Sequence record: PZ338878.1
DNA length: 64,000 nucleotides
Strand: one strand, 5' to 3'
Origin: a phage
Shown here: piece by piece, positions 28,844-44,760 of the stretch
Layout of the letters: every line of letters begins with the position of its first letter
Position numbering within the stretch: position 1 is the first letter of the stretch
The notes under the pieces: model-generated
The model's database searches: none
What the model was told of the DNA's origin: nothing
Seen by the model: only the letters and a program-made list of their open reading frames with translations
Program-made: the position numbers and the translations under genes

Positions 28844-31423
28844 CTAGTGACAACTGGCCCATGAGTTACCAACATCGTAACCAGCAGTGAGAGGTACATT
28901 AAGATTGTAATACTCACCAGCTTTATTAACAGCGATAGATGCTAATTCTCCAGCACGACTGTAGGCTGTAAACCAACCACCTTTCGGAGATTCATGTACG
29001 TTAGCCCAAATCTTGCCAGTACGTTTCTCTTCTTCTTCTTTCCAGGCGTTAACTTTATCCAAACATTCTTTATCAATTTTCTTTTGTTCTTCTGGATCAT
29101 CAACTTGAGTCCAACCTAAAGATTCTTTAGAGAACCATTTAAAATGCACTAGATCACGAGTTACTTCAAGCTGTGCTTCATCGTGATATGCAATCATTTG
29201 TTGAACGAATGACTTATTTTTCCAGTCATCAACAAAAAAGTCAACAGCTAATCCTTCTTCTTCGATAAGATCATCGTAGATAACCATTGCTCTTTTTGCA
29301 CAAATAACACCACCACTCTGGAACAGAGAGTTAAGTATTGCGTGTGCAGATCGTGTAGGTACTTTCCTACCATCAATACCAAGAATGTATTTCTTACCTG
29401 TTTTAACCCAAAAATCATGCAGACGTTCTTTAAGAAGCGCAAGAGGCTTTGCAGCTTCCCAGAAAGCATCGTATACAAGCTGTCCTGTATACATATCACT
29501 ACCAATAGTTTTTGCTACTTTTGCAGCTTGAGCACCATAGGTAATACCATATTTAACAGATTTAGCAGGGCTTCGTTCAAACTTACGACCAATAGTATCA
29601 GAAATACGTCGAGCCATCATTGTATGAACATCATTAGGTTTTTCCAACAATAGAGCGTTACAATATTCGTGTGGCTCCTGCTCGTACCGCCAACAGTAGT
29701 GTGATTCTATTTTTGCTTCAAGAGAATCGAAGTCATAACCAATCTGGAAGTATTTTGGAACTTCTACACCAAATAAGTTACGCATTTCATATCCGTACAG
29801 AGATGTTACACGTGGAATGTTTGCTACTAATCTATGTTTCATACGAGACGTAGCTGCATCACACGTTGCAGCAGGAGTTGGTATACGACCATCAGCCCTT
29901 ACTGCCGCCAGATAACCTTTATCGTAATCCTCTTCATCTTCTTCCCAATCAGCACCACCACCTAGAATAGAGTTTCTACGATGTTTATACGTAAGATACT
30001 GCACAATCTGCGTAGCATAAGGAAACTTTTCACCCAGTGCTTCCAAGTTAGGACAAATATCTTTCTCTTGCCCTTTTGTAAAGGAAGGGTTAGTAAGCAC
30101 TTTAACACCACGACCTTTAGCTTTAGCAATACGATCTCTTAGTTTCCATTCCAAAGTTTCTGGTGTGCACTCCAGATGATCACATCTATCCTGGCAGAAG
30201 TTAGATGCTAATGTTTGATCAACATAGTCACGAATAGCCTTCTCCATTTGTGCTTCATCTTTCTTAATCTTAGTGCCAGATTTAAGAGTGATATCTTTAT
30301 CTTTATATTCAGATGGACTCCAACCTAAACCAACTAACCAATTTTTAATATGTGTAGTGTCGTCTAAAGTAGCAGGTACTGTAGGATCACAAATAGGTTC
30401 TTCTGCTGGAATAGGTAGTTTAAACTCTTTACCTAATGCAAATAACCACCAACCATCTTCTTTTTGTACAAGTTCACCAGAATGTTTCTCTGCAAACTTT
30501 AGCATGTTACTTGAAGGTTCACCATTCTTTTTAAACTGTAGTTTAGGTGGAATGAATGATTTCAAATAACCTTTAGTAGCAGGTTTAGGAGGTAGCACAG
30601 GTTCTGCCTCTAAACGACATGCTTCCATTCGAGCATCCAGATCACGAATATTATCCTCTGCTTGTTTCATATTGAAAGCAAAGCCACGGTGCTCTTGACG
30701 TGTAATAATATCAGCTACACGTTGTTCTAAGTTAAATGGTTCAGACCACTTATTATAATCACCCCACTCTTCCATCAAATAACGGAACACTGCGGTGTTA
30801 GCTTTGTTATCGTAAATACAGTAATACAGCATATCTGCTGCAAATGTTCTAAATCTTTCAGTTTCAGGGATGTTTTTTCTAAAATCAATTTTAACATCCC
30901 CTCCAGCTTTCTTAGATAACTCTGCCAGACTATGACCACCGAAGCGATCAGGGTTTAGTGTCTTACTTAAGATCATAGTATCACAAATTTCAATGTTACT
31001 ATTACCCCAAGTATTGTACTTAATACTGTAGTTGAGTTTAAAAAATAATTTAATTGCCAGTAAGTCGAAGTTAATGATGTTGTGTCCAACTACTTTGGTA
31101 ATTTTATAGTTTGAATTACCTTTAAATTTACCTGTTCCATTTACAAAATCAGGAAAATCTTTAAGAGGGAAATGGGTATATTCTAAATGCTCATATTCCT
31201 CCAGTCGGTATTCATACTTTCCGTCAGTCTCAATATACGGACGACCATCGAAAAGATATTTATCACCATCATGGAAAGCAATAATCTCTCCAGTATCATG
31301 ACTTTCACACACAATACAGTGCATTGCAAAACTATCTTTTAAACGATATGGACTTGCCAAGTAATCTACACTTTCGTCATTAAGCAAGTTGTTACTTTCA
31401 ATGTCGAAAGTAAAAGCTCCCAT
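28844..31423 (-). CDS. DNA polymerase, family A, with 3'-5' exonuclease domain
   Basis: Exo I motif FDIESNN near N-terminus; motif B-like RSPAKSVKYGITYGAQAAK; motif C MIAYHDEAQ; AAGGAGGGAG RBS. Confidence 0.85.
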   Translation of the reverse strand: MGAFTFDIESNNLLNDESVDYLASPYRLKDSFAMHCIVCESHDTGEIIAFHDGDKYLFDGRPYIETDGKYEYRLEEYEHLEYTHFPLKDFPDFVNGTGKFKGNSNYKITKVVGHNIINFDLLAIKLFFKLNYSIKYNTWGNSNIEICDTMILSKTLNPDRFGGHSLAELSKKAGGDVKIDFRKNIPETERFRTFAADMLYYCIYDNKANTAVFRYLMEEWGDYNKWSEPFNLEQRVADIITRQEHRGFAFNMKQAEDNIRDLDARMEACRLEAEPVLPPKPATKGYLKSFIPPKLQFKKNGEPSSNMLKFAEKHSGELVQKEDGWWLFALGKEFKLPIPAEEPICDPTVPATLDDTTHIKNWLVGLGWSPSEYKDKDITLKSGTKIKKDEAQMEKAIRDYVDQTLASNFCQDRCDHLECTPETLEWKLRDRIAKAKGRGVKVLTNPSFTKGQEKDICPNLEALGEKFPYATQIVQYLTYKHRRNSILGGGADWEEDEEDYDKGYLAAVRADGRIPTPAATCDAATSRMKHRLVANIPRVTSLYGYEMRNLFGVEVPKYFQIGYDFDSLEAKIESHYCWRYEQEPHEYCNALLLEKPNDVHTMMARRISDTIGRKFERSPAKSVKYGITYGAQAAKVAKTIGSDMYTGQLVYDAFWEAAKPLALLKERLHDFWVKTGKKYILGIDGRKVPTRSAHAILNSLFQSGGVICAKRAMVIYDDLIEEEGLAVDFFVDDWKNKSFVQQMIAYHDEAQLEVTRDLVHFKWFSKESLGWTQVDDPEEQKKIDKECLDKVNAWKEEEEKRTGKIWANVHESPKGGWFTAYSRAGELASIAVNKAGEYYNLNVPLTAGYDVGNSWASCH

Positions 31424-31464
31424 TCTCCCTCCTTAAAATATTTCTAAAGTCTTAATTTGTTAAT

Positions 31465-31493
31465 ACTGTACCATAAATTAATTGTTTTGTAAA
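31465..31493 (-). promoter_or_regulatory. sigma70-like promoter candidate for the DNA polymerase gene
   Basis: On minus strand TTTACA - 17 nt - TACAGT, upstream of the polymerase RBS. Confidence 0.3.
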
Positions 31494-31509
31494 GGGGCTT
31501 TCGCCCCTT
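31494..31509 (-). terminator. GC-rich hairpin downstream of the 31514 gene
   Basis: GGGGC-TTTC-GCCCC stem-loop; weak U-tract on the minus strand. Confidence 0.4.
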
Positions 31510-31513
31510 CTTG

Positions 31514-31909
31514 TTATTTATTGTCAGCACTTAATTGTACTTTAATAAGGCAATTAGGGACACCATTGGTATTTCTCAAACCTACACGGTCAATTTTAAC
31601 TGTCCCTGTTAAGCCACTAAAAGTGGAAACAATGTTATTAATGTTTTCATCCTTACTAGCGATATCAAGAACAACTTTATCACTAACATTTTTCAACATA
31701 CGATCTACAAGCTCTCCCACAAAACCACTGGTAGTTTGAATGAGAAGGTATAGGCAACCATCCTCAAACCACAAATGTTCGCCATAAGCATAACCGTATG
31801 GTTCTAACTCCGATCCATCTTGAAATTTAAACTTGGCAATAGTTTTCGTATAATCATACCCTAACGCAGAAGGGGATACCCCATAGAGGATATTTTCGTT
31901 GTCTTTCAT
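31514..31909 (-). CDS. hypothetical protein
   Basis: ORF-track 31514-32038; start reassigned to ATG at 31909 (MKDNEN...) preceded by AAGGAG, removing overlap with the primase-helicase gene. Confidence 0.5.
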   Translation of the reverse strand: MKDNENILYGVSPSALGYDYTKTIAKFKFQDGSELEPYGYAYGEHLWFEDGCLYLLIQTTSGFVGELVDRMLKNVSDKVVLDIASKDENINNIVSTFSGLTGTVKIDRVGLRNTNGVPNCLIKVQLSADNK

Positions 31910-31919
31910 ATTTTTCTCC

Positions 31920-33692
31920 TTAATAAGAACCATCAGGAATATTCTCTGGGTTACTTGTGTATTGATCGTAATCGTGAAGTGTCGCTGTTTTAATCTCATA
32001 GAAGAAACTACCTGCTGCACCAGTCTCTGAGAACTCACGGTTCTTTAGAATGTAGCAATATGTGCGGTTACGTTCCATAGGATCTTCAGCTTGTTTATCA
32101 CGCTCCAGCGCAATTGTGATACCAGCACCTTTAGCAAGGAAGCTACTACCCATTGCATCATCTTCTACAATATGTTCATTACTATTGTTAGAAGACTTTT
32201 TAACGTGTGAAATTACAACAATGGTAATTGCGTACTCTTTCATAATGCGTTTGAGCCACGTCGCAAGTTCCTCTTGTTGTGACACGTCCATACCAGAAAG
32301 CAAGTCAGAATAAGGGTCGATAACAAGAATGGTTACTCCGAAATAAATAATCATTTCCAGAACCTTCTCTTTAATCACATCTACGTTAGCTCCACGATCA
32401 TCACAAACATAGAAACGTGGTGTTCCATCTTCTCGTTCGTAAAAATCACGAATCTTTTCTTCATTATCTTTTAAAATCTTTTCCTTCTCTTCTTTTGTTT
32501 TACGGTGAAGAGGGATGTGCAAGAATGAAGACAGTAAGTTACGAGAATACTTCTTATACGTTGCCTCCAAAGATAAAATACCAAGAGTATGTTCTGGGTG
32601 TGCAAGAATAATGTGCTTTGTAATCTCGTTAACCAACAGTGTTTTACCGATACTTGTTTTTGCAAGTATAACAGTAATTTCTTCTTCTACCAAGCCTCCA
32701 CCTAACATATTAGAAGCAACACGCATGAATGGAGGAAGGGTGATCATTTTAGCTTCCAGGCATTCCAAGGCTGCTTCATACAGTACGTTAGAAGCATAAA
32801 CACCAGCAGGTGTGTACAGTTTAGCTTTGAAAAAGCGATCAAGAAAGTGATCAATTTTTCCTTCTACTAGTGCCTGGTTAGGATCTTTAACATCCGTTAG
32901 TTCCATCACGTAAACTTTATTACGTGGTAAGATTTTAACACATTTCTCAACTGCTGCACGTCCAGCTTCATCATTATCCATACACAGAACAATCTTTTTA
33001 AATTGATCTAAGAATTTATAACGATGTTGAAGCTGCTTATGCAGAGATGTTTCGCCACAAGTACCAGATACTACAGCAGGAACAGGGTATTTACCGCCCT
33101 TGTTATAGTCTTTTAGCATCTGTGTTGCAGCCAGCATATCGTGTTCACCACCAACGATTAGAATAGTACCGCTGTGGTTACGATATTTAAACTCACCAAA
33201 AAGATCACAATCCTTTCCTGTTTCACCAATAGGATGCGAAAAATCTTTTGGATCGATACGTTGTTTATACCCAGCAATATTGTAATCTTTAGTTGTAGGG
33301 TATAATGTTGAAATTACTTCGCCAGTAGCTTCATCGTACATATAGCGTACACCGAAAGGTTTAGAGATATCTTCACGAATACCGCGATAACCTTTTGGAT
33401 TAGTTCCAGTGCTGGCTTTTAGTTTATCATGTACTTCTGGATTAAACTCACTACCCAAGATATCCTCCTCTTCAATTTCTTCGCCGTGTGCATTTAACCA
33501 TTTTTGATCAGGGATAGTAAAGCCACAAGAAAAACAATGTGCGCCTCGATGGTCTTCATCGGCATCTAAGCCATATACCATCAAATTGTTTTGTGATCGA
33601 TCACGCCCTCCTTTCATACAACGAGGACACCCAGTATGTCCTTCTTGACTTAGATCAATGTTATACCCATATTTATTTACAACATAAGACAC
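31920..33692 (-). CDS. bifunctional DNA primase/helicase (T7 gp4-like)
   Basis: N-terminal zinc ribbon (CPRCMKGG...HCFSCGF), TOPRIM-like region (ILIVGGEHDMLAATQ), DnaB-family Walker A (AKTSIGKT) and Walker B (VLVIDPYS). Confidence 0.8.
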   Translation of the reverse strand: MSYVVNKYGYNIDLSQEGHTGCPRCMKGGRDRSQNNLMVYGLDADEDHRGAHCFSCGFTIPDQKWLNAHGEEIEEEDILGSEFNPEVHDKLKASTGTNPKGYRGIREDISKPFGVRYMYDEATGEVISTLYPTTKDYNIAGYKQRIDPKDFSHPIGETGKDCDLFGEFKYRNHSGTILIVGGEHDMLAATQMLKDYNKGGKYPVPAVVSGTCGETSLHKQLQHRYKFLDQFKKIVLCMDNDEAGRAAVEKCVKILPRNKVYVMELTDVKDPNQALVEGKIDHFLDRFFKAKLYTPAGVYASNVLYEAALECLEAKMITLPPFMRVASNMLGGGLVEEEITVILAKTSIGKTLLVNEITKHIILAHPEHTLGILSLEATYKKYSRNLLSSFLHIPLHRKTKEEKEKILKDNEEKIRDFYEREDGTPRFYVCDDRGANVDVIKEKVLEMIIYFGVTILVIDPYSDLLSGMDVSQQEELATWLKRIMKEYAITIVVISHVKKSSNNSNEHIVEDDAMGSSFLAKGAGITIALERDKQAEDPMERNRTYCYILKNREFSETGAAGSFFYEIKTATLHDYDQYTSNPENIPDGSY

Positions 33693-33704
33693 ATGATTCT
33701 CCTA

Positions 33705-33974
33705 CTAAAATGATTCGTTTGTCTCCATAATATATTGCATTTCCAAATCTTCCATATGTTTCTTAAATTGGTAAACAATTTCCGATGGGGAAATATCTAT
33801 ATCAAAAAGTTCTTTTGTACCAGAATAGAACCTAATACCATCAACAATAAGGCCACCATAATAATCCCAATCACTTTCTCGTGAGAAAGGATTAGGTTCT
33901 TCATAATAGTAATCTACTTCAACAATAATAGGTTCTTTATTATCTTGTTTATACTCAAAATCAAAAGTGTTCAT
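33705..33974 (-). CDS. hypothetical protein
   Basis: 89 aa acidic, Tyr-rich ORF; stop-start overlap with neighbour. Confidence 0.4.
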   Translation of the reverse strand: MNTFDFEYKQDNKEPIIVEVDYYYEEPNPFSRESDWDYYGGLIVDGIRFYSGTKELFDIDISPSEIVYQFKKHMEDLEMQYIMETNESF

Positions 33975-34918
33975 TATAAATCCTCGATAAGCAGTCTGCG
34001 GGTTTCATTTAAATCATCAATATTGTAGTTATCTCTTACATACTTAGCAAGAGCCAATCCTTTCTCAATACAAACATCAGGAGATTCGATTAAGTATTCT
34101 ACAATATCTTTCCACTCTTTAACTGAATCAGCAAAGAAGATTAGATCTTTAAATTCTTCAGTATAGTAGTTCTCTCGTGGAGAACAAACGAGTGGCAAAC
34201 CTTTAGCACCAGCCTCAAGAATTTTTAAATTACTTTTGGCATTATTAAAATGATTATTTACTAACGGAGCTATGGAGATTTGATGACCATCGTATGCTTC
34301 CATATAACACTCATAAGGACGAATACCTTCATAAACACAATCTGGTTGAATATCTTCTTTAATTTGCAACCATTGAGCACTACTTAACTCTTCGTGATCT
34401 CTACGAAATCCACATAAAGTTAAATCTTTACCAAAAGTAGGAAGAATTGCTAAATCATGTTTATGGGTTTCACTTCCAGCCCAAACCAGTGGGCTTTTAG
34501 AATAACGATCTTTAGTAAGAACAAACTGTCCTTCATCAAAAGGTAGTCCGTTAGGCACAATATGTACATTATCATTGTATTGGCTTAATTCAACCTTTAA
34601 TGCTGGAGTTGTTGTAGTTACAAGATCGCTTCTTTCAAGGAACCATTTTAGGTCATCTCGGATTTGATTTTCAAATAATCCTTCCAGCATATGCCCTTCA
34701 GGAATAATTAAAGAATCATCCAAATCCATTACCAATTTAAACCCAAGCTGTTTAAGAGCCAGGAAACCTGGCTTTCCACGAGTTGGTACTCCATTGAATA
34801 CAAAAATATTATGCTTAGGATTAATAGTCAGTTTGCGTTTATATGGCAAAATGATTCTATGAAAGTCACATACACTATACCTTTCATGTCCACGTGTGTC
34901 AAGAATAATATTAGGCAT
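33974..34918 (-). CDS. putative glycosyltransferase (GT-B-like), paralog A
   Basis: Clear paralogy with the next ORF (LPFDEGQFVLTKDRYS...; SNLKILEAGAKGLPLVCSP); C-terminal E..K..E-like block resembles GT1-type nucleotide-sugar-binding region. Confidence 0.45.
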   Translation of the reverse strand: MPNIILDTRGHERYSVCDFHRIILPYKRKLTINPKHNIFVFNGVPTRGKPGFLALKQLGFKLVMDLDDSLIIPEGHMLEGLFENQIRDDLKWFLERSDLVTTTTPALKVELSQYNDNVHIVPNGLPFDEGQFVLTKDRYSKSPLVWAGSETHKHDLAILPTFGKDLTLCGFRRDHEELSSAQWLQIKEDIQPDCVYEGIRPYECYMEAYDGHQISIAPLVNNHFNNAKSNLKILEAGAKGLPLVCSPRENYYTEEFKDLIFFADSVKEWKDIVEYLIESPDVCIEKGLALAKYVRDNYNIDDLNETRRLLIEDL

Positions 34919-34929
34919 ATGGCTCCTTG

Positions 34930-35904
34930 TTAAAGACTTTCAATAACTTGACGACGCAGTTCATTGGCATCTGCAAGATTATAATTAAGACGAACGTGCT
35001 CTGCAAGCATCATACCACGATCTTCTGTGTATCTAGGGTTCCTCATTAGCTTGACAACTTCATAATGCCAAGATGCTTTAGAGTCTGCATAAATAACAGC
35101 CTTTGCATCTACCGGATTGAAGTACGGCAGCACAGGAGAACAGATAATAGGAAGACCCTTTGCACCTGCTTCCAAAATCTTCAAATTGCTTTTACAGTTG
35201 TTGAAGTCATTATCTACCAGAGGAGCAATTGCAATACTGTGACCGTCATACACAGACATATACTCACCTAAATTTTTAATAGCTGGTTTATACTGTGCAT
35301 TTGGAATTTTACGTTTTACTTTAACCCACTCCGCAGTAGTTAGATACTGACTATTATTTCCAACAGGTGCAGAAGGATACACTTCATACCCTGCAATTGT
35401 CAATAGTGTATCATCAAATGTATTAGCTACAAGAGATAAATCAGGTTCATGGCTTGCTCCTCCAGCCCAAATAATAGGCGTGTCAGAATAACGGTCTTTT
35501 GTCAAAGTAAATTGACCTTCATCGTAAGGTAGTGCGTTTCTAATAACGACAACATTACGATTTAAATGACGAATTTTGTAAGCCAGATATTCTGTTGTTA
35601 CAGTAACAACATCTGCTAACTTAATCATCTCTACAATAGTCTTTGAGTGATTAGTAAACACGCCAGCCATATAATGTTCAGGATTAAGTGAATAAAAGTC
35701 ATCTAAATCAACAATAATCTTAACACCTTGTGCCTTCAGGCGTTTAACTTCGTCTGATCCACGAGAATACACTCTATTAAAAACTAAAACGTCTTTCTTA
35801 GGCTTAAACGTATTTCCCGCAAATGGCATTACAATACGATGGTAATCACAACCACTGCCTAACTTATTATCACACTTAAGTACAGGAGTATTAGGATTTA
35901 CCAT
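34930..35904 (-). CDS. putative glycosyltransferase (GT-B-like), paralog B
   Basis: ORF-track 34930-35943; start probably at internal Met (MVNPNTPVL), aligning with paralog A; LPYDEGQFTLTKDRYS and SNLKILEAGAKGLPIICSP. Confidence 0.45.
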   Translation of the reverse strand: MVNPNTPVLKCDNKLGSGCDYHRIVMPFAGNTFKPKKDVLVFNRVYSRGSDEVKRLKAQGVKIIVDLDDFYSLNPEHYMAGVFTNHSKTIVEMIKLADVVTVTTEYLAYKIRHLNRNVVVIRNALPYDEGQFTLTKDRYSDTPIIWAGGASHEPDLSLVANTFDDTLLTIAGYEVYPSAPVGNNSQYLTTAEWVKVKRKIPNAQYKPAIKNLGEYMSVYDGHSIAIAPLVDNDFNNCKSNLKILEAGAKGLPIICSPVLPYFNPVDAKAVIYADSKASWHYEVVKLMRNPRYTEDRGMMLAEHVRLNYNLADANELRRQVIESL

Positions 35905-36577
35905 ATTTTTGAGCCTCCTCATAAGAGATAAAAGTTTTACCATTGCGAAGATCCTCCAGTGATTGTTTATATTGTTCCCAGTTTACACCAATCCCCTGTT
36001 CTTTCTCTTCTTTTGACAGATTCGCAAAAGGTAAAGGGTTGTCTCCAAACACATCATCAGGATGGATAAACGCCATAATTCGAATAGGACATGGTACGCC
36101 CTGAATACCTCGGTTCAAACCTGCCAGTGGAACGCGCTGAATCCACTCTGCATCTTCATATCCATAACCGTGGGTGTATGAGCGGAAATAGCCAGCTTTC
36201 TCAATAACTGCACGGGAATACATACCAAACTGGCACATACCTAGTTCCCAAATAACCACTTCACCTTCAATACCTTTTACTTTATCTTTAAAGTATTCAG
36301 GCATACCAAAGAAATCCCAGCCATTTTCCTTAGCCTGTTTTACAAAATATGTTTCCCAACCTGGCACAACCGGATAGCAATCATCATCAAAAATAAACCA
36401 GTAATCATACCCTTCATCATAAAACTTTTTCATCAGTTCATTACGGGCATATGCAACACCTTTTCGTTCCCGATCATACTGTACAACAAAAGTAGCATTA
36501 GGATCAGTCACAAGATAATCTTTAAGAGGACGCTTACCTACAGTAATAACACCAACACCAATTTTTGTATTTTCCAA
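35891..36577 (-). CDS. putative glycosyltransferase (GT-A-like, DxD motif)
   Basis: YWFIFDDDCYPV motif after an N-terminal Rossmann-like stretch. Confidence 0.45.
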   Translation of the reverse strand: MENTKIGVGVITVGKRPLKDYLVTDPNATFVVQYDRERKGVAYARNELMKKFYDEGYDYWFIFDDDCYPVVPGWETYFVKQAKENGWDFFGMPEYFKDKVKGIEGEVVIWELGMCQFGMYSRAVIEKAGYFRSYTHGYGYEDAEWIQRVPLAGLNRGIQGVPCPIRIMAFIHPDDVFGDNPLPFANLSKEEKEQGIGVNWEQYKQSLEDLRNGKTFISYEEAQKYGKS

Positions 36578-36586
36578 AATAACTCC

Positions 36587-37150
36587 TTAAATAATTTTAT
36601 TCATGTCTTGACAATGTAAAAGGTGTGAAACAGCTTTTCTAGGATCATCGTTACCTAAACGGTATGTGTGAAATAAATATAACCCACGTAGTAAACCTAG
36701 CCTTTTATTGTTAGCGTGTAATGCTTTAGAGAAAATTATATCAAACTGTATTGATCTTTCCTCAAAAGGGATTTCATTCCACAGACTCTTACGAAAGAGA
36801 AGAAAGAATCCTGCTAAGATAGCATCTGTAGGTACTTCCTCTATTGAGTTTCCCCATTCTAGATGTGCTCTTTTTGCAATCTCAATGTGGTGTAATATAT
36901 TTGGATCTTCACTTCTTTCATTATTAAATAATTGATATGTTGATCCCAATCTATTACAAGATGCACCAAGAACATCAAAATCAGGATTTGAACGGACTAT
37001 TGATTCCAACCAAGCAGGTTGTTCTGGAAGAAGAAACATTGTATCAATGTCTCTTAGGCAAATCCAACTATCTTCTGGTAAGACACTTATTGTGTCATTG
37101 ATACCTTTTCCAATATCTCCAGAAAGATAGGGAGTTATGTGAAATATCAT
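36587..37150 (-). CDS. hypothetical protein, possibly glycosyltransferase-like
   Basis: 187 aa; LRDIDTMFL acidic motif; adjacent to glycosyltransferase genes. Confidence 0.3.
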   Translation of the reverse strand: MIFHITPYLSGDIGKGINDTISVLPEDSWICLRDIDTMFLLPEQPAWLESIVRSNPDFDVLGASCNRLGSTYQLFNNERSEDPNILHHIEIAKRAHLEWGNSIEEVPTDAILAGFFLLFRKSLWNEIPFEERSIQFDIIFSKALHANNKRLGLLRGLYLFHTYRLGNDDPRKAVSHLLHCQDMNKII

Positions 37151-37207
37151 ACTCCCTCCGTATTATTACTTTAGCATTTTTAGACTAAAAAGTCCAAATG
37201 GTTTTAC

Positions 37208-37402
37208 CTATTGATTACGTTTTGCGAGTTCCATCTGGATAGCTAAACTGTGATCTCGTGCTTCCATATACTCTTTATATGTTTCATTAAGATGATCACG
37301 ACAAACATCACGCAGTTTAATCAGTTTATCTGTAGGGATACCACTAAGATCATCCCAAGACTTTACAACTTCACCAGTATCATTGATCCCAATGGTTTTC
37401 AT
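37208..37402 (-). CDS. hypothetical protein
   Basis: 64 aa ORF. Confidence 0.35.
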   Translation of the reverse strand: MKTIGINDTGEVVKSWDDLSGIPTDKLIKLRDVCRDHLNETYKEYMEARDHSLAIQMELAKRNQ

Positions 37403-37610
37403 CTACAACCTCCTTAATTGCTACAGCACAGTTTTTGCAGATACACTGCCCTTTACCTTTAGAAATCTGGATGTAAGGTTCATTTTCATTTTCGCCCTTA
37501 CGTGAGTCATATATTACAGAATTGAAGCACACAACGCAAATATTTTTTAAGATTGTATACTTATCAACTTTCTTTTTTGTTTTAAAGTTAACTTCAATAA
37601 CATCAGCCAT
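37380..37610 (-). CDS. zinc-ribbon protein
   Basis: ORF-track 37380-37658 trimmed to internal Met; CVVCFNSV ... CICKNCAV four-Cys arrangement. Confidence 0.4.
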   Translation of the reverse strand: MADVIEVNFKTKKKVDKYTILKNICVVCFNSVIYDSRKGENENEPYIQISKGKGQCICKNCAVAIKEVVDENHWDQ

Positions 37611-37888
37611 CAGTGTAACACTCCCAGTATGTTGTTTTGTGACATAACCATAGAACATTCAACATTATCGTGACTACGTGAAAAACGTTCCCAAACATCT
37701 TCATCGACTCGTAAAGCTATACAAGGATAGACGTTATCATTGATCATTTCAATTGAATAAACATCCACATTGTCTTCGTCTTCGATGAACATCATTGCAA
37801 ACTGTTCTAAATGTTTCCTAATGTAATGTACATCCTCTTCTGTAAGACCAATAACAAGATAACTTGCAACGATAACGCCATCTTTCAT
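37610..37888 (-). CDS. hypothetical protein
   Basis: 92 aa acidic ORF. Confidence 0.4.
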   Translation of the reverse strand: MKDGVIVASYLVIGLTEEDVHYIRKHLEQFAMMFIEDEDNVDVYSIEMINDNVYPCIALRVDEDVWERFSRSHDNVECSMVMSQNNILGVLH

Positions 37889-37898
37889 CTATATCTCC

Positions 37899-38408
37899 TT
37901 AGCGATAGAATTGATGTTCTTTGTAGCGGTACACTAGAACCATATCTTTTTCCCAGTGTGCTCTTATTGTAGATTTTTTAAAGTATAATGCTCCTTTTGT
38001 AATATCTAATGCAATTCGTAATTCTGGAAAATGGTTATCGAGATAAAGTAGACGTTCTGCTATAGCTTTAGCGTCTTTCCACTTATCGTGTTCCATAACG
38101 TTGAATGTCTTCGTGTAAGAGAATTGTCCTTTTTGAAACAAAACTTCTTTTATAGTATCAGGGAAATATGAATCTCTCGCCCTATTCAATACTACATTAC
38201 CAACAGCAGACATACCGCGCTTTCCTTGATTACGACTTTCTGCATAGATTGCACAAGCTAATAGATTTTCTTTACTATCACGCTTTGTACACTTGTGAAC
38301 TACTTTAGCAGTTTTTACGTTTGCAGCTTCGGCTTGCGCCACAACAGGTGTAAATGTAAAAGCAGTTAAGGATAGTAACGCAATTGCGACAAAGGTTTTT
38401 ATTGACAA
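37899..38408 (-). CDS. secreted cell-wall hydrolase, SleB/Hydrolase_2 family (candidate endolysin)
   Basis: N-terminal signal peptide (MSIKTFVAIALLSLTAFTFTPVVAQA); CAIYAESRNQGKRGMSAVGNVVLNRARDSYFPDTIKEVLFQKGQFSY resembles SleB-type hydrolases. Confidence 0.65.
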   Translation of the reverse strand: MSIKTFVAIALLSLTAFTFTPVVAQAEAANVKTAKVVHKCTKRDSKENLLACAIYAESRNQGKRGMSAVGNVVLNRARDSYFPDTIKEVLFQKGQFSYTKTFNVMEHDKWKDAKAIAERLLYLDNHFPELRIALDITKGALYFKKSTIRAHWEKDMVLVYRYKEHQFYR

Positions 38409-38471
38409 ACTTGCCTCCTATTTTGTTAAACGAACTTTTATTGTAACACAGAAGAGGCTATTTTGCAAGTG

Positions 38472-38490
38472 GAGGGGGATAATCCCCCTC
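38472..38490 (-). terminator. GC-rich hairpin (terminator or processing site)
   Basis: GAGGGGGA-TAA-TCCCCCTC perfect stem-loop between the 38501 gene and the hydrolase gene; no clear U-tract. Confidence 0.35.
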
Positions 38491-38500
38491 TTACACTCTG

Positions 38501-39103
38501 TTAGATATTGTAAACCTTTGTATGAGTTACTACACCATCTTCTACAAAATCAATACGTTCTTGATCCGTAACTAGTGCAGACAACACTTTAAATTTAATT
38601 TTTACACGTTCAAAAGCTGGTTGACCATCTTTAAGATAATTATGTTCAGTTGTCACTGTCTTGTTTACAAAATCAACTTTTGCTTTACCGTTCTCGCGTA
38701 AGTGGAATGTTTTTCCTGCTTTATACACAATTTCAACATTACCTTCGAGAGTAATTCCTTCAAAAAGTTCACCCTCTTCTTCATTTTCTTCACTTTTGAA
38801 CAGACGACGAAACTCTTCCATATCAAGATAAACAACATCTTCAGAATAACTATCAGTAAGATATGTCTTACCCTCCATTAACCCGAAATATTGCCAGATT
38901 GCCGAATAAACATCACTAGATGATCCAAGGGTTTCTCTGAGTTTAGTTCCACGGATTACTTCATAAACTTCAAAATTGAAACCAGACTGCAAAGCATCAA
39001 ACAGCACATCACTAACTTCTAAAGCATAATCTTCATTGTTGTCAATATCTACAAGAAAATTGCCGCTACGAATAAGTTTTTGACCTTCTAAAGTAATACT
39101 CAT
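38501..39103 (-). CDS. hypothetical protein
   Basis: 200 aa acidic ORF. Confidence 0.45.
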   Translation of the reverse strand: MSITLEGQKLIRSGNFLVDIDNNEDYALEVSDVLFDALQSGFNFEVYEVIRGTKLRETLGSSSDVYSAIWQYFGLMEGKTYLTDSYSEDVVYLDMEEFRRLFKSEENEEEGELFEGITLEGNVEIVYKAGKTFHLRENGKAKVDFVNKTVTTEHNYLKDGQPAFERVKIKFKVLSALVTDQERIDFVEDGVVTHTKVYNI

Positions 39104-39119
39104 TGTTTTCTCCTCTTTT

Positions 39120-39150
39120 ATTTCAAATATGCGCCCCGAAGGGCGCTATG
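39120..39150 (-). terminator. terminator-like hairpin downstream of terD-like gene
   Basis: GCGCCC-CGAA-GGGCGC followed on the minus strand by a T-rich run. Confidence 0.5.
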
Positions 39151-39167
39151 ATTTATTACTTGATGTA

Positions 39168-39764
39168 TTACTCGAACCAATCGTCGCCAGCGCCAAACGC
39201 TTTAACTACATCGTAAATGTCAAGCCCAGCTTTACCTACACCATATGCTTTCAGTTTCCATTCGCTATCTTCTCGCACCAGGGAGGCAACGTGGCAAATG
39301 GTGTTACCTGCAAGTTCTGGAGCCAAGAAGTCAAAGTCCAGCAGTTCAACATTACGTTCATCATCGAAGATTTTAAGGAAACCTTCGGTAGCGTGACCAA
39401 GGCGTTTCTTACCCGTTTCGTCATCAATAGTAATTACGAATGCAATTTCCTGTGCTTCAGCAGAGATATTATCCAGTGTAACATCAATCTGCTCCATCTG
39501 TCCTACACCATCACGAACATCTTCACCTGCAAAAGTAGAACGTTCAGGATCAAATTTCTGTGCGTAGCACACCAGGTGACGAGGAGACAACAGTTCCGGC
39601 AGACCAGATGCATTGTGTCGGCAAATCAGAGCACTAACATCCAGATCCAGTTTTTCGTTAGATTTCCAAGAGAATTCCAGACGAATGCGTTTCAGTGCTG
39701 GTGCGATCTTTTTCAGAGAAACTTTTTCGCTAGAACCTTTTTTCAGGGAAATTTTCTGAGTCAT
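39168..39764 (-). CDS. terD: TerD-domain protein
   Basis: ISLKKG...VSLKK, DLDVSAL, FAGEDVRDG, EIAFVITIDD, EWKLKAYGVG match TerD-family hallmarks. Confidence 0.8.
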   Translation of the reverse strand: MTQKISLKKGSSEKVSLKKIAPALKRIRLEFSWKSNEKLDLDVSALICRHNASGLPELLSPRHLVCYAQKFDPERSTFAGEDVRDGVGQMEQIDVTLDNISAEAQEIAFVITIDDETGKKRLGHATEGFLKIFDDERNVELLDFDFLAPELAGNTICHVASLVREDSEWKLKAYGVGKAGLDIYDVVKAFGAGDDWFE

Positions 39765-39837
39765 AATTTATTATCTCCTTTGTTGTTAATTTACGTTGTC
39801 TATTTTACTAATCTTTTCTACAAAGTCAAGCGTTTTT

Positions 39838-40632
39838 TTACGCTTTTGCTCCGAATTTTTTAACCCACTCACCAAACTCTTCAGATAACAATTTATCGTA
39901 AAGTTCTTCATCAGACAAGGACAAATCTGCAATACCGATAAAATCAACATTATCGTACTCTTTTGCCAAGTCTTTCAGGAATTTAAAGTTTGCATTACCT
40001 ACACCAACCATAAACCAGTAAACAGGCGTATTGCGGTGTTTGTTCAGTAAGCTACGTACTGCTGAAGTATCCATGTTTTCCCCGTCAGTTTGGAAGAAAA
40101 TCATTGCAGGAGTACGATCAACTTGTGCATCAGTATCTACAACCTGTTCTACAACAGTACGTGTTACTTCTACAAGTTCTTTTTTACCAGTTAGTTTAGC
40201 AAGGAAACCCTTAGCTGGGACTTCTTCATACTCAACGACTTCGCGTGTAATATTTTTCATAGGTACACTACCGAAGTATGTATCATAGATCTCCTGCATT
40301 ACTGGAGCATAAGCAGTACCACCATTGATGCAAACATTAGACATGCAAGAGCCGACATAATCATCATACACATCAGCCGTTGCAGGAGGCAGTTCAAAAG
40401 AAGAACTATTGAAAGCCCACATGTCAATCTGTGCATTGTCATCAAACTTCATACCAAACGGCAGCAGTTTACCTACAAAATCACTAACAGTGCCATCACG
40501 ATACAGCTCACACATACTACCCGAAATATCTAAGGCGCTACCGACACGAAGAACAACATCGTTAATCTTTTTCTTACGCAGAGATACAGTAAGAGTTTCT
40601 TGACGTTTTTTAAGACTGATTTTATTGGACAT
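39838..40632 (-). CDS. vWA-domain protein with TerD-like N-terminal motif (TerY/TerF-like)
   Basis: N-terminal ISLKKRQETLTVSLRK then MIDAS-type DISGSM. Confidence 0.6.
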   Translation of the reverse strand: MSNKISLKKRQETLTVSLRKKKINDVVLRVGSALDISGSMCELYRDGTVSDFVGKLLPFGMKFDDNAQIDMWAFNSSSFELPPATADVYDDYVGSCMSNVCINGGTAYAPVMQEIYDTYFGSVPMKNITREVVEYEEVPAKGFLAKLTGKKELVEVTRTVVEQVVDTDAQVDRTPAMIFFQTDGENMDTSAVRSLLNKHRNTPVYWFMVGVGNANFKFLKDLAKEYDNVDFIGIADLSLSDEELYDKLLSEEFGEWVKKFGAKA

Positions 40633-40633
40633 A

Positions 40634-40903
40634 TTATTTCTCCTTTCTGAGTGTAATGTTAGTAACTTCTAAATCCACTTCTACCATTTCTGTATCATAT
40701 GAAATACAGCTAAGTTGACCTCTTTGTGAACCGTTCAGACACATTGCTTGGTTTGTATTAACTTTAATAAACACTAAGTTTCTGAACGTATCTAAACCAG
40801 AATCTTGATACGCAACATAATATACGAATGTATCACCTGCGTCAAGTTCTCCAAAACATTTAGGTTCATCTGATTTATCGTCTTTGATATTAAATTTAAG
40901 CAC
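40634..40903 (-). CDS. hypothetical protein
   Basis: 89 aa. Confidence 0.4.
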   Translation of the reverse strand: MLKFNIKDDKSDEPKCFGELDAGDTFVYYVAYQDSGLDTFRNLVFIKVNTNQAMCLNGSQRGQLSCISYDTEMVEVDLEVTNITLRKEK

Positions 40904-41459
40904 TGTCTTCTCCTTTACCTGCCCTCCAGCCTAAATAGAAAGCCTCTCTGGTGATCTTTTGCAACTCGTTTAAAGAGATAGTTACAACTAAATTATCTTC
41001 AATTTCTAGCTTTGAGTCTTCTTCTGTCTCAATGCAAGTATTATGCACTTTGTGGTAAGGATTGTCAACACGTTTAAATTTATTATTTTCAGTGCTGAAG
41101 AAGCAATCTGGATCTTCTTCTCCATCACCCCAACCCTGGTTAGGGTCTTCTTCAGATCTTTCTGTTGGGATCTCACCTGTAAAGTGCTCTTCTAATACCA
41201 TAGCGATACCATCTCCAAGATCGGAAGAGAACATCAAATTACAAACTTCTTCCCAAGGCATAGACCACTTAAATCTTTTACGATTACCATGTTTATCTTC
41301 TTCGTTAGAGAAAACACTACCATAGCTATCATAATTGCCATACATCTCTTCAACAACTTTACCACCTTTCAAAAGAAATAGGTAGCAAGGAGAACCATCG
41401 AAAGAGGTAGAAAGAGCAGCATTGCCAGACTCTTTGCACAAGAAACTAAAACACCCCAT
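40896..41459 (-). CDS. hypothetical acidic protein
   Basis: 187 aa; C-terminal motif LNELQKITREAFYLGWRAG. Confidence 0.45.
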   Translation of the reverse strand: MGCFSFLCKESGNAALSTSFDGSPCYLFLLKGGKVVEEMYGNYDSYGSVFSNEEDKHGNRKRFKWSMPWEEVCNLMFSSDLGDGIAMVLEEHFTGEIPTERSEEDPNQGWGDGEEDPDCFFSTENNKFKRVDNPYHKVHNTCIETEEDSKLEIEDNLVVTISLNELQKITREAFYLGWRAGKGEDSA

Positions 41460-41659
41460 TATACACCAGCCTTAAGATCAATTAAAGCCAAAGTTGTTTC
41501 AGAATGTGTTTGCTCGTCTACAGGTGCAGTCATATGATAATACAAAAAGTCTTCGGCATCATACCAATCTGATTCTTGACCTTGTTTCCAACCATCAATG
41601 AAAGCATCCTCCATAATGGTTTGTAATTCTTCACGAGTTAAGTGAATATCTTTATTCAT
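41459..41659 (-). CDS. hypothetical protein sharing motif with upstream neighbour
   Basis: 66 aa; N-terminal LTREELQTIMEDAFIDGWKQG. Confidence 0.4.
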   Translation of the reverse strand: MNKDIHLTREELQTIMEDAFIDGWKQGQESDWYDAEDFLYYHMTAPVDEQTHSETTLALIDLKAGV

Positions 41660-41892
41660 TACACATTCTCCTCTTTTACCAATTCCATCGTTGAACTATC
41701 AAAACCATCTTTAGAAGAATAGGTATAGACAGAACGTAGTTCTCGCAGGACAGTAAATACATTAGGATCATCTAACCAAGCATCCTGGAGGAGAACATAA
41801 CGATCTTCATTGTCATACTGGACAGCAATCATAGAACCAGACAGTTTGTAAATTTTAATATTCATAATATATTTCTCCTTAAAGTAGACCAC
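41659..41892 (-). CDS. hypothetical protein
   Basis: 77 aa. Confidence 0.4.
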   Translation of the reverse strand: MVYFKEKYIMNIKIYKLSGSMIAVQYDNEDRYVLLQDAWLDDPNVFTVLRELRSVYTYSSKDGFDSSTMELVKEENV

Positions 41893-42982
41893 GTTTAACA
41901 GTTTGAATCATACCATCTTCAAGAGATTGCACTTCTTGAATGTAATCAATACGAGCAGCACGGGCTTCAGTGTTGATTCGGTTAGTTTCTTCCAACATTT
42001 TAACTAAGTTTTCTTGATCGCGACGTAATGTTTCAATATCCAATACTTGACGATTAGCAAGTTGCGTAGCTTCAATTTGGTTTTGTGCAGCCAGATCACT
42101 ACCCATTGCAATAGCAGCATTAAATTCATTCAGTACATTGTTCTGTGTATCGGCTGCTTTCTTCTGGCGTAGACTTTCAATATACATAGAAAAGTTTGCA
42201 GAGTAAGCAGGAATAACATTATTCACAATATTACGGGCTGATCGCATCAAACTTGCAGATACTTTCTGCATACTTTGTACACGTGGCCCCATCTGAACAC
42301 ACAGTAAACGCAAGGCTTTCAGGTCTGCAATACGAATTTCAAGCAGATCCATAGTATCACGAGTACGTTGACGCTCTTCTACTTCATTTTCAGGTAGTGT
42401 ATTAAGGCGAACTTCTTCTTTTTCATAAGTAGCTGTTAGAAGCTCTATATCCCTGTTTAAGCTAAGAGCATATTTTGCAATAGCCTCTTCTAAACGTTGC
42501 AGATATCGTAAAGAATCTTCTTCTTTTTTCAAGTCTGTTTGGAGTGTCTTTACCAAACCTTCAATACGATTATTGATGGTGTCAAATTCACCAAACAAAT
42601 CTTCTTTCATACCTAATACTTTCTTAACTAGTTTACCTAAGCCTTTAGATTGTTTAATAGAATTAGGATCAAGTTGCTTTGCTTGCTTAATAAGTGCAGT
42701 TAAACGCTCACTCATTTCATCTCCCTGAGATGAACGCTGGTGTTTAAGCACTTCCGCATTAAGGTTACGAAGAGTAAGTCCTGCATCAGCACCAACCTGT
42801 TCAATCTCTTCACGAGACATTGGAGGCAGCATTTGTACAGGTCGTGCAACAGCAGGGGCATATACAGGGCTTGCATCCATAGCAGTTGGAGCAAACAAAG
42901 ACTTACTTTTTTCTGTTGTTGCCGTGAATACACTCATTTCAGACGGTTTGCTTTTTACGGCACTGATAAAAGGACTGGACAT
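41879..42982 (-). CDS. telA: TelA-like toxic anion resistance family protein
   Basis: 367 aa, largely helical/coiled-coil, with size and pattern resembling TelA/KlaA; context with TerD/TerC. Confidence 0.55.
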   Translation of the reverse strand: MSSPFISAVKSKPSEMSVFTATTEKSKSLFAPTAMDASPVYAPAVARPVQMLPPMSREEIEQVGADAGLTLRNLNAEVLKHQRSSQGDEMSERLTALIKQAKQLDPNSIKQSKGLGKLVKKVLGMKEDLFGEFDTINNRIEGLVKTLQTDLKKEEDSLRYLQRLEEAIAKYALSLNRDIELLTATYEKEEVRLNTLPENEVEERQRTRDTMDLLEIRIADLKALRLLCVQMGPRVQSMQKVSASLMRSARNIVNNVIPAYSANFSMYIESLRQKKAADTQNNVLNEFNAAIAMGSDLAAQNQIEATQLANRQVLDIETLRRDQENLVKMLEETNRINTEARAARIDYIQEVQSLEDGMIQTVKRGLL

Positions 42983-43050
42983 TCAATTTCCTCCATATTC
43001 TTTAGTAGATGGTGATACCTCTGTACCACCATCATAACACAAATTAAGTA

Positions 43051-43902
43051 TTAAACAAACATATCTAAATAATTTGTAGTAATAAATGCTCCATCTGCTT
43101 CCAGATTAACATAACCAGTAGCATTAGTGGTTAAGAAATCCAGATCGAAGGACTCTTTAACACCCCGTACCTCAACACGAGAGATATCGAATACAGGTAG
43201 TGTAACAGCCTCTTCGTGCAATACCGTACCTTTGTAGGTTGCCTTAATGATAAACTTGATATTACCCGTTCCCGCATCATACAAAACACTTTCAAAGCCT
43301 TTGAGAGTATACTTATCACCAGAGGTGAAGTGCAAAGTTGCTTTGTTTACAGTACGTTTTTTACGAGGAGTTCCTTTCACACGTTTATGATCACTACGTT
43401 TTTTGTATTTAGGAATGAATACAAACGATACACTCTCAAGAAAAGTATCAACATCAAGGATTTTAATATCCTCTGTTGCAGCAAATTTTGAAGTCGTTGC
43501 ATCAAAATGCTTTGCTCTGCGATCATACATAAAGATATCAAACCGATCTTCTAAATCAAACAAATTGTGTATCTTAATTTCAGAATGCTTGCACATTGCA
43601 GCAACCTTAAACTCTTCAAAACGTGGGTGTTCTACAAGCTCTTCAAGTTTTACACCAAAGACAGTATATTGTTTCGAAGTTTTTTCTGGCGTTGGCATTA
43701 CAGAAGCATAATCACCGATTGCGCTTTTAAAGCAAAATTGTTCTTGACCTGTATTTTTACCAACGAATTTACAGTATTCGTCATCGTGCATACTTTCTTT
43801 GGTAGTACCAACAAACTCAAAACCATCTTTATTCTTCTCAAGAATTTCTTGATTAAAGATCCAACCTTCCAGGCGATACACTTTACCAACTTCTAGTTTC
43901 AT
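43051..43902 (-). CDS. hypothetical protein
   Basis: 283 aa; basic patch KKRSDHKRVKGTPRKKRTVNK. Confidence 0.45.
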   Translation of the reverse strand: MKLEVGKVYRLEGWIFNQEILEKNKDGFEFVGTTKESMHDDEYCKFVGKNTGQEQFCFKSAIGDYASVMPTPEKTSKQYTVFGVKLEELVEHPRFEEFKVAAMCKHSEIKIHNLFDLEDRFDIFMYDRRAKHFDATTSKFAATEDIKILDVDTFLESVSFVFIPKYKKRSDHKRVKGTPRKKRTVNKATLHFTSGDKYTLKGFESVLYDAGTGNIKFIIKATYKGTVLHEEAVTLPVFDISRVEVRGVKESFDLDFLTTNATGYVNLEADGAFITTNYLDMFV

Positions 43903-43937
43903 CTGTTTCTCCTTCTTATTTAATCTGTATTAAATTA

Positions 43938-44543: not shown

Positions 44544-44721
44544 TTAAAGTCTCGACACAATTTTTAAAATCTCTAGAGAAACAATACATCTGTTCTCCGT
44601 TCCTGTTGATAGTAATTGTATGGTTATCAACATATGTTGTCAAGATAAAAATCAAACAAAATAACCCTAAAGCAAAACAAATATTTTCAAACAGAATCCA
44701 AAGAACACGTAAAACCACCAT
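44515..44721 (-). CDS. small membrane protein
   Basis: 68 aa; N-terminal TM helix; GAGGTGA RBS; overlaps 5' end of lipoprotein ORF. Confidence 0.3.
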   Translation of the reverse strand: MVVLRVLWILFENICFALGLFCLIFILTTYVDNHTITINRNGEQMYCFSRDFKNCVETLNERVTNEKH

Positions 44722-44736
44722 CAGATCACCTCAATA

Positions 44737-44757
44737 AAGCCCCCGAAGGGGCTTAAT
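44737..44757 (-). terminator. terminator-like hairpin downstream of terC
   Basis: AAGCCCC-CGAA-GGGGCTT followed on the minus strand by TTTATT. Confidence 0.45.
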
Positions 44758-44760
44758 AAA

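Follow-up and report, generated by a model that had tools for sequence, protein, structure and literature searches.

What do four adjacent glycosyltransferase genes in the replication block of a lytic coliphage modify? The question is raised by sequence record PZ338878.1, a 64,000-nucleotide (nt) stretch of phage DNA (hereafter the window), in which such a cluster fills positions 33974-37150. A preliminary description of the window had suggested that these enzymes glycosylate DNA bases to evade restriction, while leaving the substrate open. We find that all four proteins are supported as glycosyltransferases (GTs), two of them GT-B paralogues and two of them GT-As with a DxD motif, and that close relatives of this phage carry a complete pathway for dTDP-L-rhamnose. 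DNA modification is unlikely, and glycosylation of a virion protein is the best-supported alternative to it. We propose tentatively, and with somewhat less than even confidence, that the cluster assembles a rhamnose-containing glycan in the cytoplasm on a protein, probably a virion protein, rather than on DNA.

A four-gene cluster in the replication block

Between positions 33700 and 37450 the window shares 98-99% nucleotide identity with 57 deposited genomes of Justusliebigvirus (phi92-like phages of the Stephanstirmvirinae), including pEC-M2929-1AR.1, W22, PHB05, phi92 and the BASEL phage Bas61 EmilieFrey. Bas61 positions are converted to window positions by subtracting about 10,578. The cluster is filled by four open reading frames (ORFs) on the minus strand, P1 to P4, transcribed in the order P4, P3, P2, P1, and a small ORF lies beyond them (lengths in amino acids, aa):

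36587-37150, minus strand: P4, 187 aa, predicted minimal GT-A glycosyltransferase of the phi92 gp166 type, first gene of the cluster
35891-36577, minus strand: P3, 228 aa, predicted GT-A glycosyltransferase with a TTG start, in the frame of P4 and 9 nt downstream of it
34930-35904, minus strand: P2, 324 aa, predicted GT-B paralogue of P1
33974-34918, minus strand: P1, 314 aa, predicted GT-B glycosyltransferase of a CgeB-like/GT4-like family
33705-33974, minus strand: acidic 89-aa ORF, pI 4.1, PHROG 4240, unknown function

A 9-nt spacer separates P4 from P3, P3 and P2 overlap by 14 nt, P2 and P1 are 11 nt apart, and the start of the 89-aa ORF overlaps the P1 stop by 1 nt. Although the longest ORF for P2 spans 34930-35943 (337 aa), its likely start is the ATG at 35904, which has AGGAGG 9 nt upstream and gives a protein of 324 aa, in place of the 325 aa first assigned to it. 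Downstream in the direction of transcription lie genes for a primase/helicase (31920-33692) and then a DNA polymerase (28844-31423), so the earlier statement that the cluster is embedded in the replication module stands. In a consensus scan of 31300-39300, promoter-like sites were not enriched over shuffled sequence, and no minus-strand terminator was found within the cluster. For these two reasons, the cluster looks like part of one transcription unit with the replication genes; a separate unit could not be defined from the scan.

None of the four proteins has a transmembrane segment. Three are acidic (pI 5.1-5.6) and P2 has a pI of 8.2. The genes, which correspond to phi92 gp163-166, are not new: they are already named glycosyltransferases in dozens of GenBank records. 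The deposited annotation in relatives reads 'glycosyltransferase' for all four, and that of Bas61 gives 'putative disaccharide synthase' for two and 'putative glycosyltransferase' for the other two. We considered the 89-aa ORF as a conserved partner or acceptor and rejected it. It is kept beside the GT-B gene only in Stephanstirmvirinae-like phages, and no homologue of it follows the GT-B gene in either of two other contigs (L006 and L023). Judged by this distribution, its membership in the glycosyltransferase system is doubtful.

At least 80% of the cluster is covered in 125 records of Justusliebigvirus and Phapecoctavirus. All of it is present in collinear order in about 56 Justusliebigvirus records (at least 95% nucleotide identity) and about 70 Phapecoctavirus records, phAPEC8 included; in the latter genus the nucleotide identity is about 70%, and P1 is 76% identical at the amino-acid level. 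One 'alia' assembly (OZ035799.1) covers only 72% of the cluster. In a Klebsiella member of the subfamily the locus retains just one GT-B gene together with a P4-like GT-A gene. Because this relative keeps just that pair, the pair is the minimal module, and P3 and the second GT-B look like an elaboration of it.

Five records named 'Campylobacter phage', with Campylobacter jejuni given as host, match the coliphage genera over the compared regions (MG065639, MG065645, MG065656, MG065689 and MG065650; phages A150, A145, C3, A110a and B15). Four of them match the GT and rml regions of Justusliebigvirus at about 98% identity, and the GT cluster of B15 is Phapecoctavirus-like, at about 70%. From these matches, the host assignment of all five looks doubtful.

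Two probable GT-B paralogues and two minimal GT-As

P1 and P2 are clear paralogues by sequence comparison, with 41% identity over 311 residues (E = 1e-82), and both match phrog_7162 end to end (E 4.8e-145 for P1, 3.7e-149 for P2). The tandem paralogues of the preliminary description are thereby confirmed, and their GT-B-like character is supported: P1 passes the gathering score of Pfam family PF13524 (Glyco_trans_1_2; 26.8 bits against 25) and its N-terminus gives weak matches to Glyco_transf_4, the GT4 N-terminal domain. By profile score P1 alone among the four proteins is a formal member of this CgeB-like family, as the matches of P2 to Glyco_trans_1_4 and Glyco_trans_1_2 lie below the cut-offs (14.7 and 18.1 bits). 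NCBIfam has no family for any of P1 to P4.

A 35-sequence alignment of the P1/P2 family has 15 invariant columns, including a K-S-x-x-K-x-x-E block in the donor-binding domain (K228, S229, K232 and E235). Both P1 and P2 look active, because every one of these residues is kept in both. In searches of PDB sequences, the family profile gave weak matches only, to the GT-B enzymes MshA and TreT (E 0.006-0.009); a match to a designed repeat protein in these searches was dismissed as spurious. The profile retrieves 29,595 cluster representatives, 3,942 of them at E ≤ 1e-30, and some members are giant fusions with GT1/GT4, GT2, methyltransferase and TPR domains. In one fused homologue (P0132) the profile matches residues 1080-1408, where PF13579 and PF13439 (about 1118-1214) are followed by PF13524 (1253-1399), each above its gathering threshold for the protein. 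Because this region holds GT4 N-terminal domains and a C-terminal PF13524 domain, it supports a predicted two-domain GT-B architecture for the family.

P3 and P4 carry the residues expected of GT-A enzymes. In P3, D64-D65-D66 and E141-D142 are invariant in 18 of 18 sequences; in P4, D34-x-D36 and H161 are invariant in 32 of 32. They match PHROG 2456 (E 2e-79) and PHROG 14179, 'glycosyltransferase' (E 5.5e-113), respectively. The AlphaFold models are confident (pLDDT 87.4 for P3; pLDDT 94.7 and pTM 0.90 for P4). In a Foldseek search of the PDB, the top 50 matches of the P4 model are all GT-A enzymes (best E 7e-5, TM-score about 0.5), among them LARGE1, the GT domain of LH3, the Listeria monocytogenes TDP-rhamnose transferase RmlT, COLGALT1 and B4GALNT1. 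The best match of the P3 model is the GT-A protein A197 of Sulfolobus turreted icosahedral virus (STIV; E 5e-6), followed by LH3, COLGALT1, WrtF and TarP and, lower down, by a few related sugar-nucleotidyltransferases; among viral proteins, its structural neighbours are giant-virus GTs and GT2-like phage proteins that are uncharacterised. The third protein had initially been described as GT-A-like with a DxD motif and the fourth as a possible transferase. Both descriptions hold, and for these two proteins the fold predictions proposed at that time yield GT-A models, not non-transferase folds. As the TM-scores against solved GT-A structures are modest (0.4-0.5), the models describe P3 and P4 as divergent minimal GT-A enzymes.

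Sequence searches place these two proteins less firmly. P4 has no Pfam match, and neither protein reaches the threshold of any Pfam family, which leaves both outside the curated GT-A families; single-sequence and profile searches against PDB sequences returned nothing significant for either. P3 scores 23.3 bits against TAGT (PF20691; cut-off 27.5) over profile positions 37-96, that is 60 of 205, a partial match that spans only its nucleotide-binding and DxD region. TAGT matches occur in 12 of the 18 P3 homologues, all below threshold (best E 6.8e-5), and P3 also weakly matches the PHROG of T6-type beta-glucosyl-HMC (hydroxymethylcytosine) alpha-glucosyltransferases (phrog_842). The idea that P3 and P4 are recent paralogues was dropped, as hhalign between them was not significant.

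A dTDP-rhamnose pathway accompanies the cluster in relatives

No sugar-nucleotide genes were found in the window. In Bas61, a 98%-identical relative, RmlB, RmlA, RmlC and RmlD are encoded beside glutaredoxin and ribonucleotide reductase. Against the NCBIfam equivalogs, RmlA scores 471 bits (cut-off 361), RmlB 442 (365), RmlC 260 (156) and RmlD 254 (224). This 3.3-kb rml block occurs at 98% identity or more in 56 phage records, the window's closest relatives included, and 54 of these cover at least 80% of it; the 56 are essentially the same set as the 57 Justusliebigvirus records with the GT cluster. A complete dTDP-rhamnose pathway has also been described in Justusliebigvirus-like phages and Phapecoctavirus (Olsen et al., PMC7552041). 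Given this co-occurrence in relatives, dTDP-L-rhamnose is the likely donor. Because the relatives carry the complete pathway alongside the GT cluster, at least one of the four enzymes is very probably a rhamnosyltransferase, and the presence of RmlT among the structural matches of the P4 model hints at specificity for dTDP-rhamnose.

Homologues lie beside virion, glycan and adhesin genes

To our question about the acceptor, the genomic surroundings of homologues offer the most informative clues. In an unrelated phage (contig L006, about 36 kb), a GT-A homologous to P3 (hhalign 98.2%, E 5e-14) stands directly before a GT-B homologue, and immediately downstream of the pair come the genes for small terminase, terminase, portal, protease and capsid. 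Contig L021 and Streptomyces phage KimJongPhill likewise have a GT-B homologue a short way upstream of their packaging and head genes, in KimJongPhill together with a UDP-glucose dehydrogenase and a methyltransferase. In contig L009 the distance is about 4 kb, and a GT2 and an acetyltransferase adjoin the small terminase. A 166-aa ORF after the GT-B gene in L009 was examined as a P4 homologue and rejected.

In other phages, distant P4 homologues stand at the head of large multi-gene glycan clusters. These clusters hold GT-D, TOD1/MUCI70, DegT aminotransferase, 4,6-dehydratase/epimerase and Methyltransf_24 proteins as well as Stealth, polysaccharide deacetylase and UDP-galactopyranose mutase (GLF) proteins, and one of them sits between terminase and portal. 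Another GT-B relative is clustered with genes for a GT2, for a second PF13524 protein, and for dehydratase, radical-SAM and DegT enzymes. Such multi-enzyme sets fit the building of oligosaccharides.

Two bacterial GT-B homologues could be placed, with 34-36% identity over full length, and both are beside genes for surface adhesins. In Burkholderia dolosa (L005, 3025-8440), an intimin/invasin-type inverse autotransporter, a 571-aa unknown protein and the GT are encoded contiguously and in the same orientation, apparently as one operon. In a metagenomic contig (L020, 100-10680), the homologue is near a pertactin autotransporter, one GT4 gene and two GT2 genes. These neighbourhoods hint that members of the GT-B family may glycosylate adhesins. 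The present phage has unusually many tail fibres and spikes. Among the fibres, intimin and glycosidase domains are annotated in one, and another contains collagen repeats.

The tail-fibre protein encoded at 20671-22632 on the plus strand combines a Tail_spike_N domain with a number of short G-X-Y stretches of collagen-like sequence (GDKGDKGDKG and similar). Collagen-type glycosylation of this fibre was considered, prompted by the structural matches to LH3 and COLGALT1, and set aside as speculation only: the repeats are short and of the GDK/GEK type, no lysyl hydroxylase was found, and the GT-A matches are generic.

Comparison with known systems for glycosylating protein shells

Mycobacteriophage cassettes for virion glycosylation (Che8 gp108-110, also Corndog and Myrna) are reportedly the subject of experimental work by Freeman et al. 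in 2023. They consist of several small GTs, often with sugar-tailoring enzymes, close to packaging or structural genes, and act in the cytoplasm to place a glycan on capsid or tail proteins. The present cassette resembles them in its gene-count architecture and in the contexts of its distant homologues. In contrast, the three Che8 proteins are a GT2-methyltransferase fusion, a GT2 and a GT25; Che8 has neither GT-B nor rml genes, its Pfam families are different and its hosts are actinobacterial, whereas the present cassette has a Gram-negative host and sits in the replication block.

A bacterial parallel is the glycosylation of the Bacillus subtilis spore crust, which involves CgeB, the founder of PF13524, the GT-As SpsA and CgeD, and SpsI-L, homologues of RmlABCD. 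There the same toolkit of PF13524-type GT-Bs, small GT-As and a dTDP-rhamnose pathway acts on a proteinaceous surface shell. However, that system belongs to bacterial sporulation, and its sole link to the cassette is the PF13524 membership of P1 (26.8 bits), so the likeness is one of analogy, not orthology. Capsid glycosylation in archaeal and giant viruses (STIV A197, chlorovirus and mimivirus GTs) is treated in two reviews (PMC5408694, PMC9614988). These viral GT-As glycosylate virion proteins independently of host machinery, and A197 is the best structural match of P3. Here the likeness is at the level of the fold only (TM-score 0.4-0.5, identity ≤21%), and hosts and virion architectures differ. 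The cassette would appear to work like other virus-encoded glycosylation systems, but its sequences place it in none of those characterised so far.

A proposal for virion glycosylation, and what weighs against it

The enzymology rests on firm ground, as do the paralogy and conservation of the four genes and the presence of the Rml pathway in relatives. We infer the rhamnose donor, the sequential action of the enzymes and the protein acceptor, the last from genomic context only. In the proposed scheme, RmlABCD encoded elsewhere in the phage genome would supply dTDP-L-rhamnose. The four soluble cytoplasmic GTs, a conserved and apparently co-transcribed cassette of two DxD GT-As and two paralogous GT-Bs, would then add sugars one after another to give a short rhamnose-containing glycan on protein. 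Its acceptor would most likely be a protein of the virion surface, in the capsid, a decoration protein, a tail fibre or a spike, which would receive the glycan before assembly. Searches of the literature for glycosylated coliphage capsids and for rhamnosylated phage DNA returned nothing relevant.

Several observations weigh against this proposal. No glycoprotein is directly documented in these phages. The cassette is in the early/middle replication block, away from the late structural genes. Homology to the Che8 GTs is not detectable by sequence: comparisons of two family alignments (A1 and A2) and P1 with gp108, gp109 and gp110, by hhalign and BLASTP, gave probabilities below 1% or E values above 0.1. 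Location just upstream of terminase, as seen in the distant homologues, is also common for accessory ('moron') genes and is only suggestive; the bacterial contexts number two, one of them divergent and loosely linked. The GT-B family is, moreover, huge and, with its fusions to TPR, methyltransferase and GT2 domains, functionally mixed, so that membership leaves the acceptor unfixed. The link to rhamnose is imperfect as well. E. coli itself can supply dTDP-sugars. Phage cardinal (PQ567651.1) keeps 28% of the rmlBACD block and Eryne (PQ529420.1) keeps 83%, each with an intact GT cluster, and the Phapecoctavirus ESCO37, which lacks rmlA and rmlB (PMC10269720), retains all four GTs. Because some phages keep the GTs without an intact rml block, rhamnose may be supplied by the host or may not be the sole donor; as far as these genomes indicate, the rml pathway is not strictly required alongside the cluster.

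Alternative acceptors

If DNA were the acceptor, rhamnose or another sugar would be placed on phage bases, perhaps only at rare sequence-specific sites. Base glycosylation has been published as a hypothesis for these phages (PMC7552041, PMC10844046), and it would suit the location of the cassette among replication genes, the fact that TAGT is the best Pfam match of P3, and its weak match to the T6-type phrog_842. TAGT enzymes act on glycosylated cytosines in T6-like phages, and the family includes the T6 second-glucose transferase (PMC13390438); in addition, the Dcm-like C5 methyltransferase encoded by relatives could mark sites. The T-even DNA GTs (the GT-B enzymes alpha- and beta-GT of T4, and the TAGT-family GT-As of T2 and T6) are, like the cassette, soluble, phage-encoded and close to genes for nucleotide metabolism or replication, and they share a sequential two-sugar logic. 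However, the TAGT match of P3 stays below the gathering score, covers the nucleotide-binding and DxD region only and leaves P3 outside the family. The T4 AGT and BGT families (PF11440, PF09198) are absent from the Pfam scan of P1 to P4 at E ≤ 1, so P1 and P2 match neither. The likely donor is dTDP-rhamnose, not the UDP-glucose of the T-even systems, and a hydroxymethylcytosine pathway like theirs was not found in Bas61.

In the known routes to glycosylated bases, a ThyA-family enzyme or a TET/JBP dioxygenase first provides a hydroxymethyl or hydroxy pyrimidine. The preliminary description noted correctly that no hydroxymethylase or thymidylate-synthase gene is in the window, and it proposed a search of the rest of the genome. 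In Bas61, that search finds only a divergent ThyX-type thymidylate synthase of 323 aa, the sole one of this phage (Bas61 124839-125810; L004 34840-35811; outside the window), which scores 35.5 bits against TIGR02170 (cut-off 87.9) and is not of the ThyA family. A Pfam scan of the 40 unannotated Bas61 proteins of at least 130 aa gave no TET_JBP (PF12851), 2-oxoglutarate (2OG) oxygenase or ThyA-like domain, and the curated Bas61 annotation names no TET/JBP or 2OG oxygenase and no ThyA-type hydroxymethylase. An enzyme that would make the acceptor was thus not found in Bas61. The DNA of these phages also behaves as unprotected. The phi92-like phages Bas60-62 are 'exceptionally susceptible' to restriction-modification (RM) despite a 'putative dTDP glycosylation machinery' (Maffei et al., PMC8594841). 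Phage PATM, which has the same four genes (PATM_092-095) and the rml block, is restricted 10^7-fold by BREX and is listed apart from the 13 phages that BrxU restricts; this promiscuous type IV enzyme cuts DNA with 5-methylcytosine, 5-hydroxymethylcytosine (5hmC) or glucosyl-5hmC (PMC8565348). Normal restriction sensitivity, which had been named in advance as an argument against base modification, is therefore largely what the published phenotypes show (PMC8594841, PMC8565348). The small phage L006 has a P3-type and GT-B pair with no base-modification genes in the 21 kb examined, and the acidity of three of the four enzymes is a further, weak argument. Taken together, these results make the suggested glycosylation of DNA bases to evade restriction very unlikely; a rare modification at specific sequences keeps a small probability.

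The enzymes might instead remodel the host envelope, with lipid-linked intermediates of, for example, the lipopolysaccharide (LPS) core, enterobacterial common antigen or O-antigen as their substrates on the cytoplasmic side of the inner membrane. Rhamnose-containing side groups would then mask receptors, block superinfection or reduce the trapping of progeny on cell debris. dTDP-rhamnose is a known donor for LPS core and O-antigen, LPS-core assembly uses soluble or peripheral GT-B and GT-A enzymes, deposited annotations call the GT-Bs RfaG/WaaG-like or 'disaccharide synthase', and the structural matches include TarP for P3 and, for P4, the wall-teichoic-acid rhamnosyltransferase RmlT. LPS core and a surface glycan serve these phages as receptors (PMC8594841, PMC11990801). 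However, in the short cycle of a strictly lytic phage, newly modified LPS would come to cover no more than a part of the cell. The proteins lack a membrane anchor or amphipathic segment and are not accompanied by a flippase or polymerase, and the same GT modules occur beside head genes in phages of very different hosts, Streptomyces included. We consider envelope remodelling unlikely. Less plausible still is some other cytoplasmic acceptor, such as a host protein modified during takeover, a tRNA base, or a nucleoside-like metabolite tied to the Ter, PRTase, HAD and macro genes nearby. In the window as in the Klebsiella relative, the cassette keeps synteny with a complete Ter-like set and with a PRTase_3-HAD-Macro trio; its placement is early/middle, and the phage encodes tRNAs and NAD-salvage genes. 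This synteny is confined to one subfamily, though, and Ter genes do not accompany the distant GT homologues that were examined; four GTs with a dedicated deoxysugar pathway also exceed what such a modification needs.

Neighbouring genes

Upstream of the GT cluster in transcription order, a complete set of tellurite-resistance-like (Ter) genes occupies 39168-45738 on the minus strand, an arrangement shared with the Klebsiella relative, and a trio of genes follows it. These and two further genes of the minus-strand block are listed here with their profile scores where given:

25915-26646, minus strand: Dam-like N6 methyltransferase, 107 bits, second gene of the minus-strand block
37899-38408, minus strand: SleB-like cell-wall hydrolase (PF07486), 72 bits, four genes upstream of the GT cluster
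39168-39764, minus strand: TerD, 98 bits
39838-40632, minus strand: vWA-TerF-like protein, 134 bits
41879-42982, minus strand: TelA, 118 bits
44761-45738, minus strand: TerC, 133 bits
46295-47077, minus strand: macro domain protein, adjoining PRTase_3
47074-47862, minus strand: ComF-like PRTase_3, 133 bits
47855-48529, minus strand: HAD hydrolase, third gene of the trio after the Ter genes

Combinations of macro, PRTase_3 and HAD proteins in Ter neighbourhoods are predicted to make a nucleoside-like metabolite. Relatives of the phage encode phosphoribosyl pyrophosphate (PRPP) synthetase and Nampt. The SleB-like protein has an N-terminal segment that resembles a signal peptide, and it is distinct from the endolysin annotated elsewhere in relatives. 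At about 25.5 kb the coding strand switches from plus-strand tail-fibre genes to minus-strand early/middle genes, and the cumulative GC skew peaks there. In addition to the Dam-like enzyme, relatives encode a Dcm-like C5 methyltransferase and a second N6 methyltransferase.

Significance

Justusliebigvirus and Phapecoctavirus are among the coliphages of broadest host range and are in development for therapy and biocontrol. Their genomes devote about 6.5 kb to four GTs and a complete rhamnose pathway, yet their DNA behaves as unprotected, and the target of the glycosylation is an acknowledged loose end (PMC8594841). The cardinal, Eryne and alia variants are potential natural knock-outs with which function could be tested. 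If the target were DNA after all, the cassette would make a new rhamnosyl modification without a known hydroxymethyl precursor. The fullest form of our proposal is that a lytic coliphage runs its own protein-glycosylation system of GTs and RmlABCD to coat a virion protein, and that the same module does so in many unrelated phages; so broad a claim we regard as doubtful at present. Were the virion the target, phage self-glycosylation would extend from actinobacteriophages to Gram-negative phages, and this would be, to our knowledge, the first case of a phage of Gram-negative bacteria encoding its own system for virion glycosylation. It would then bear on the antibody recognition, stability, receptor interactions and host range of therapeutic phages.

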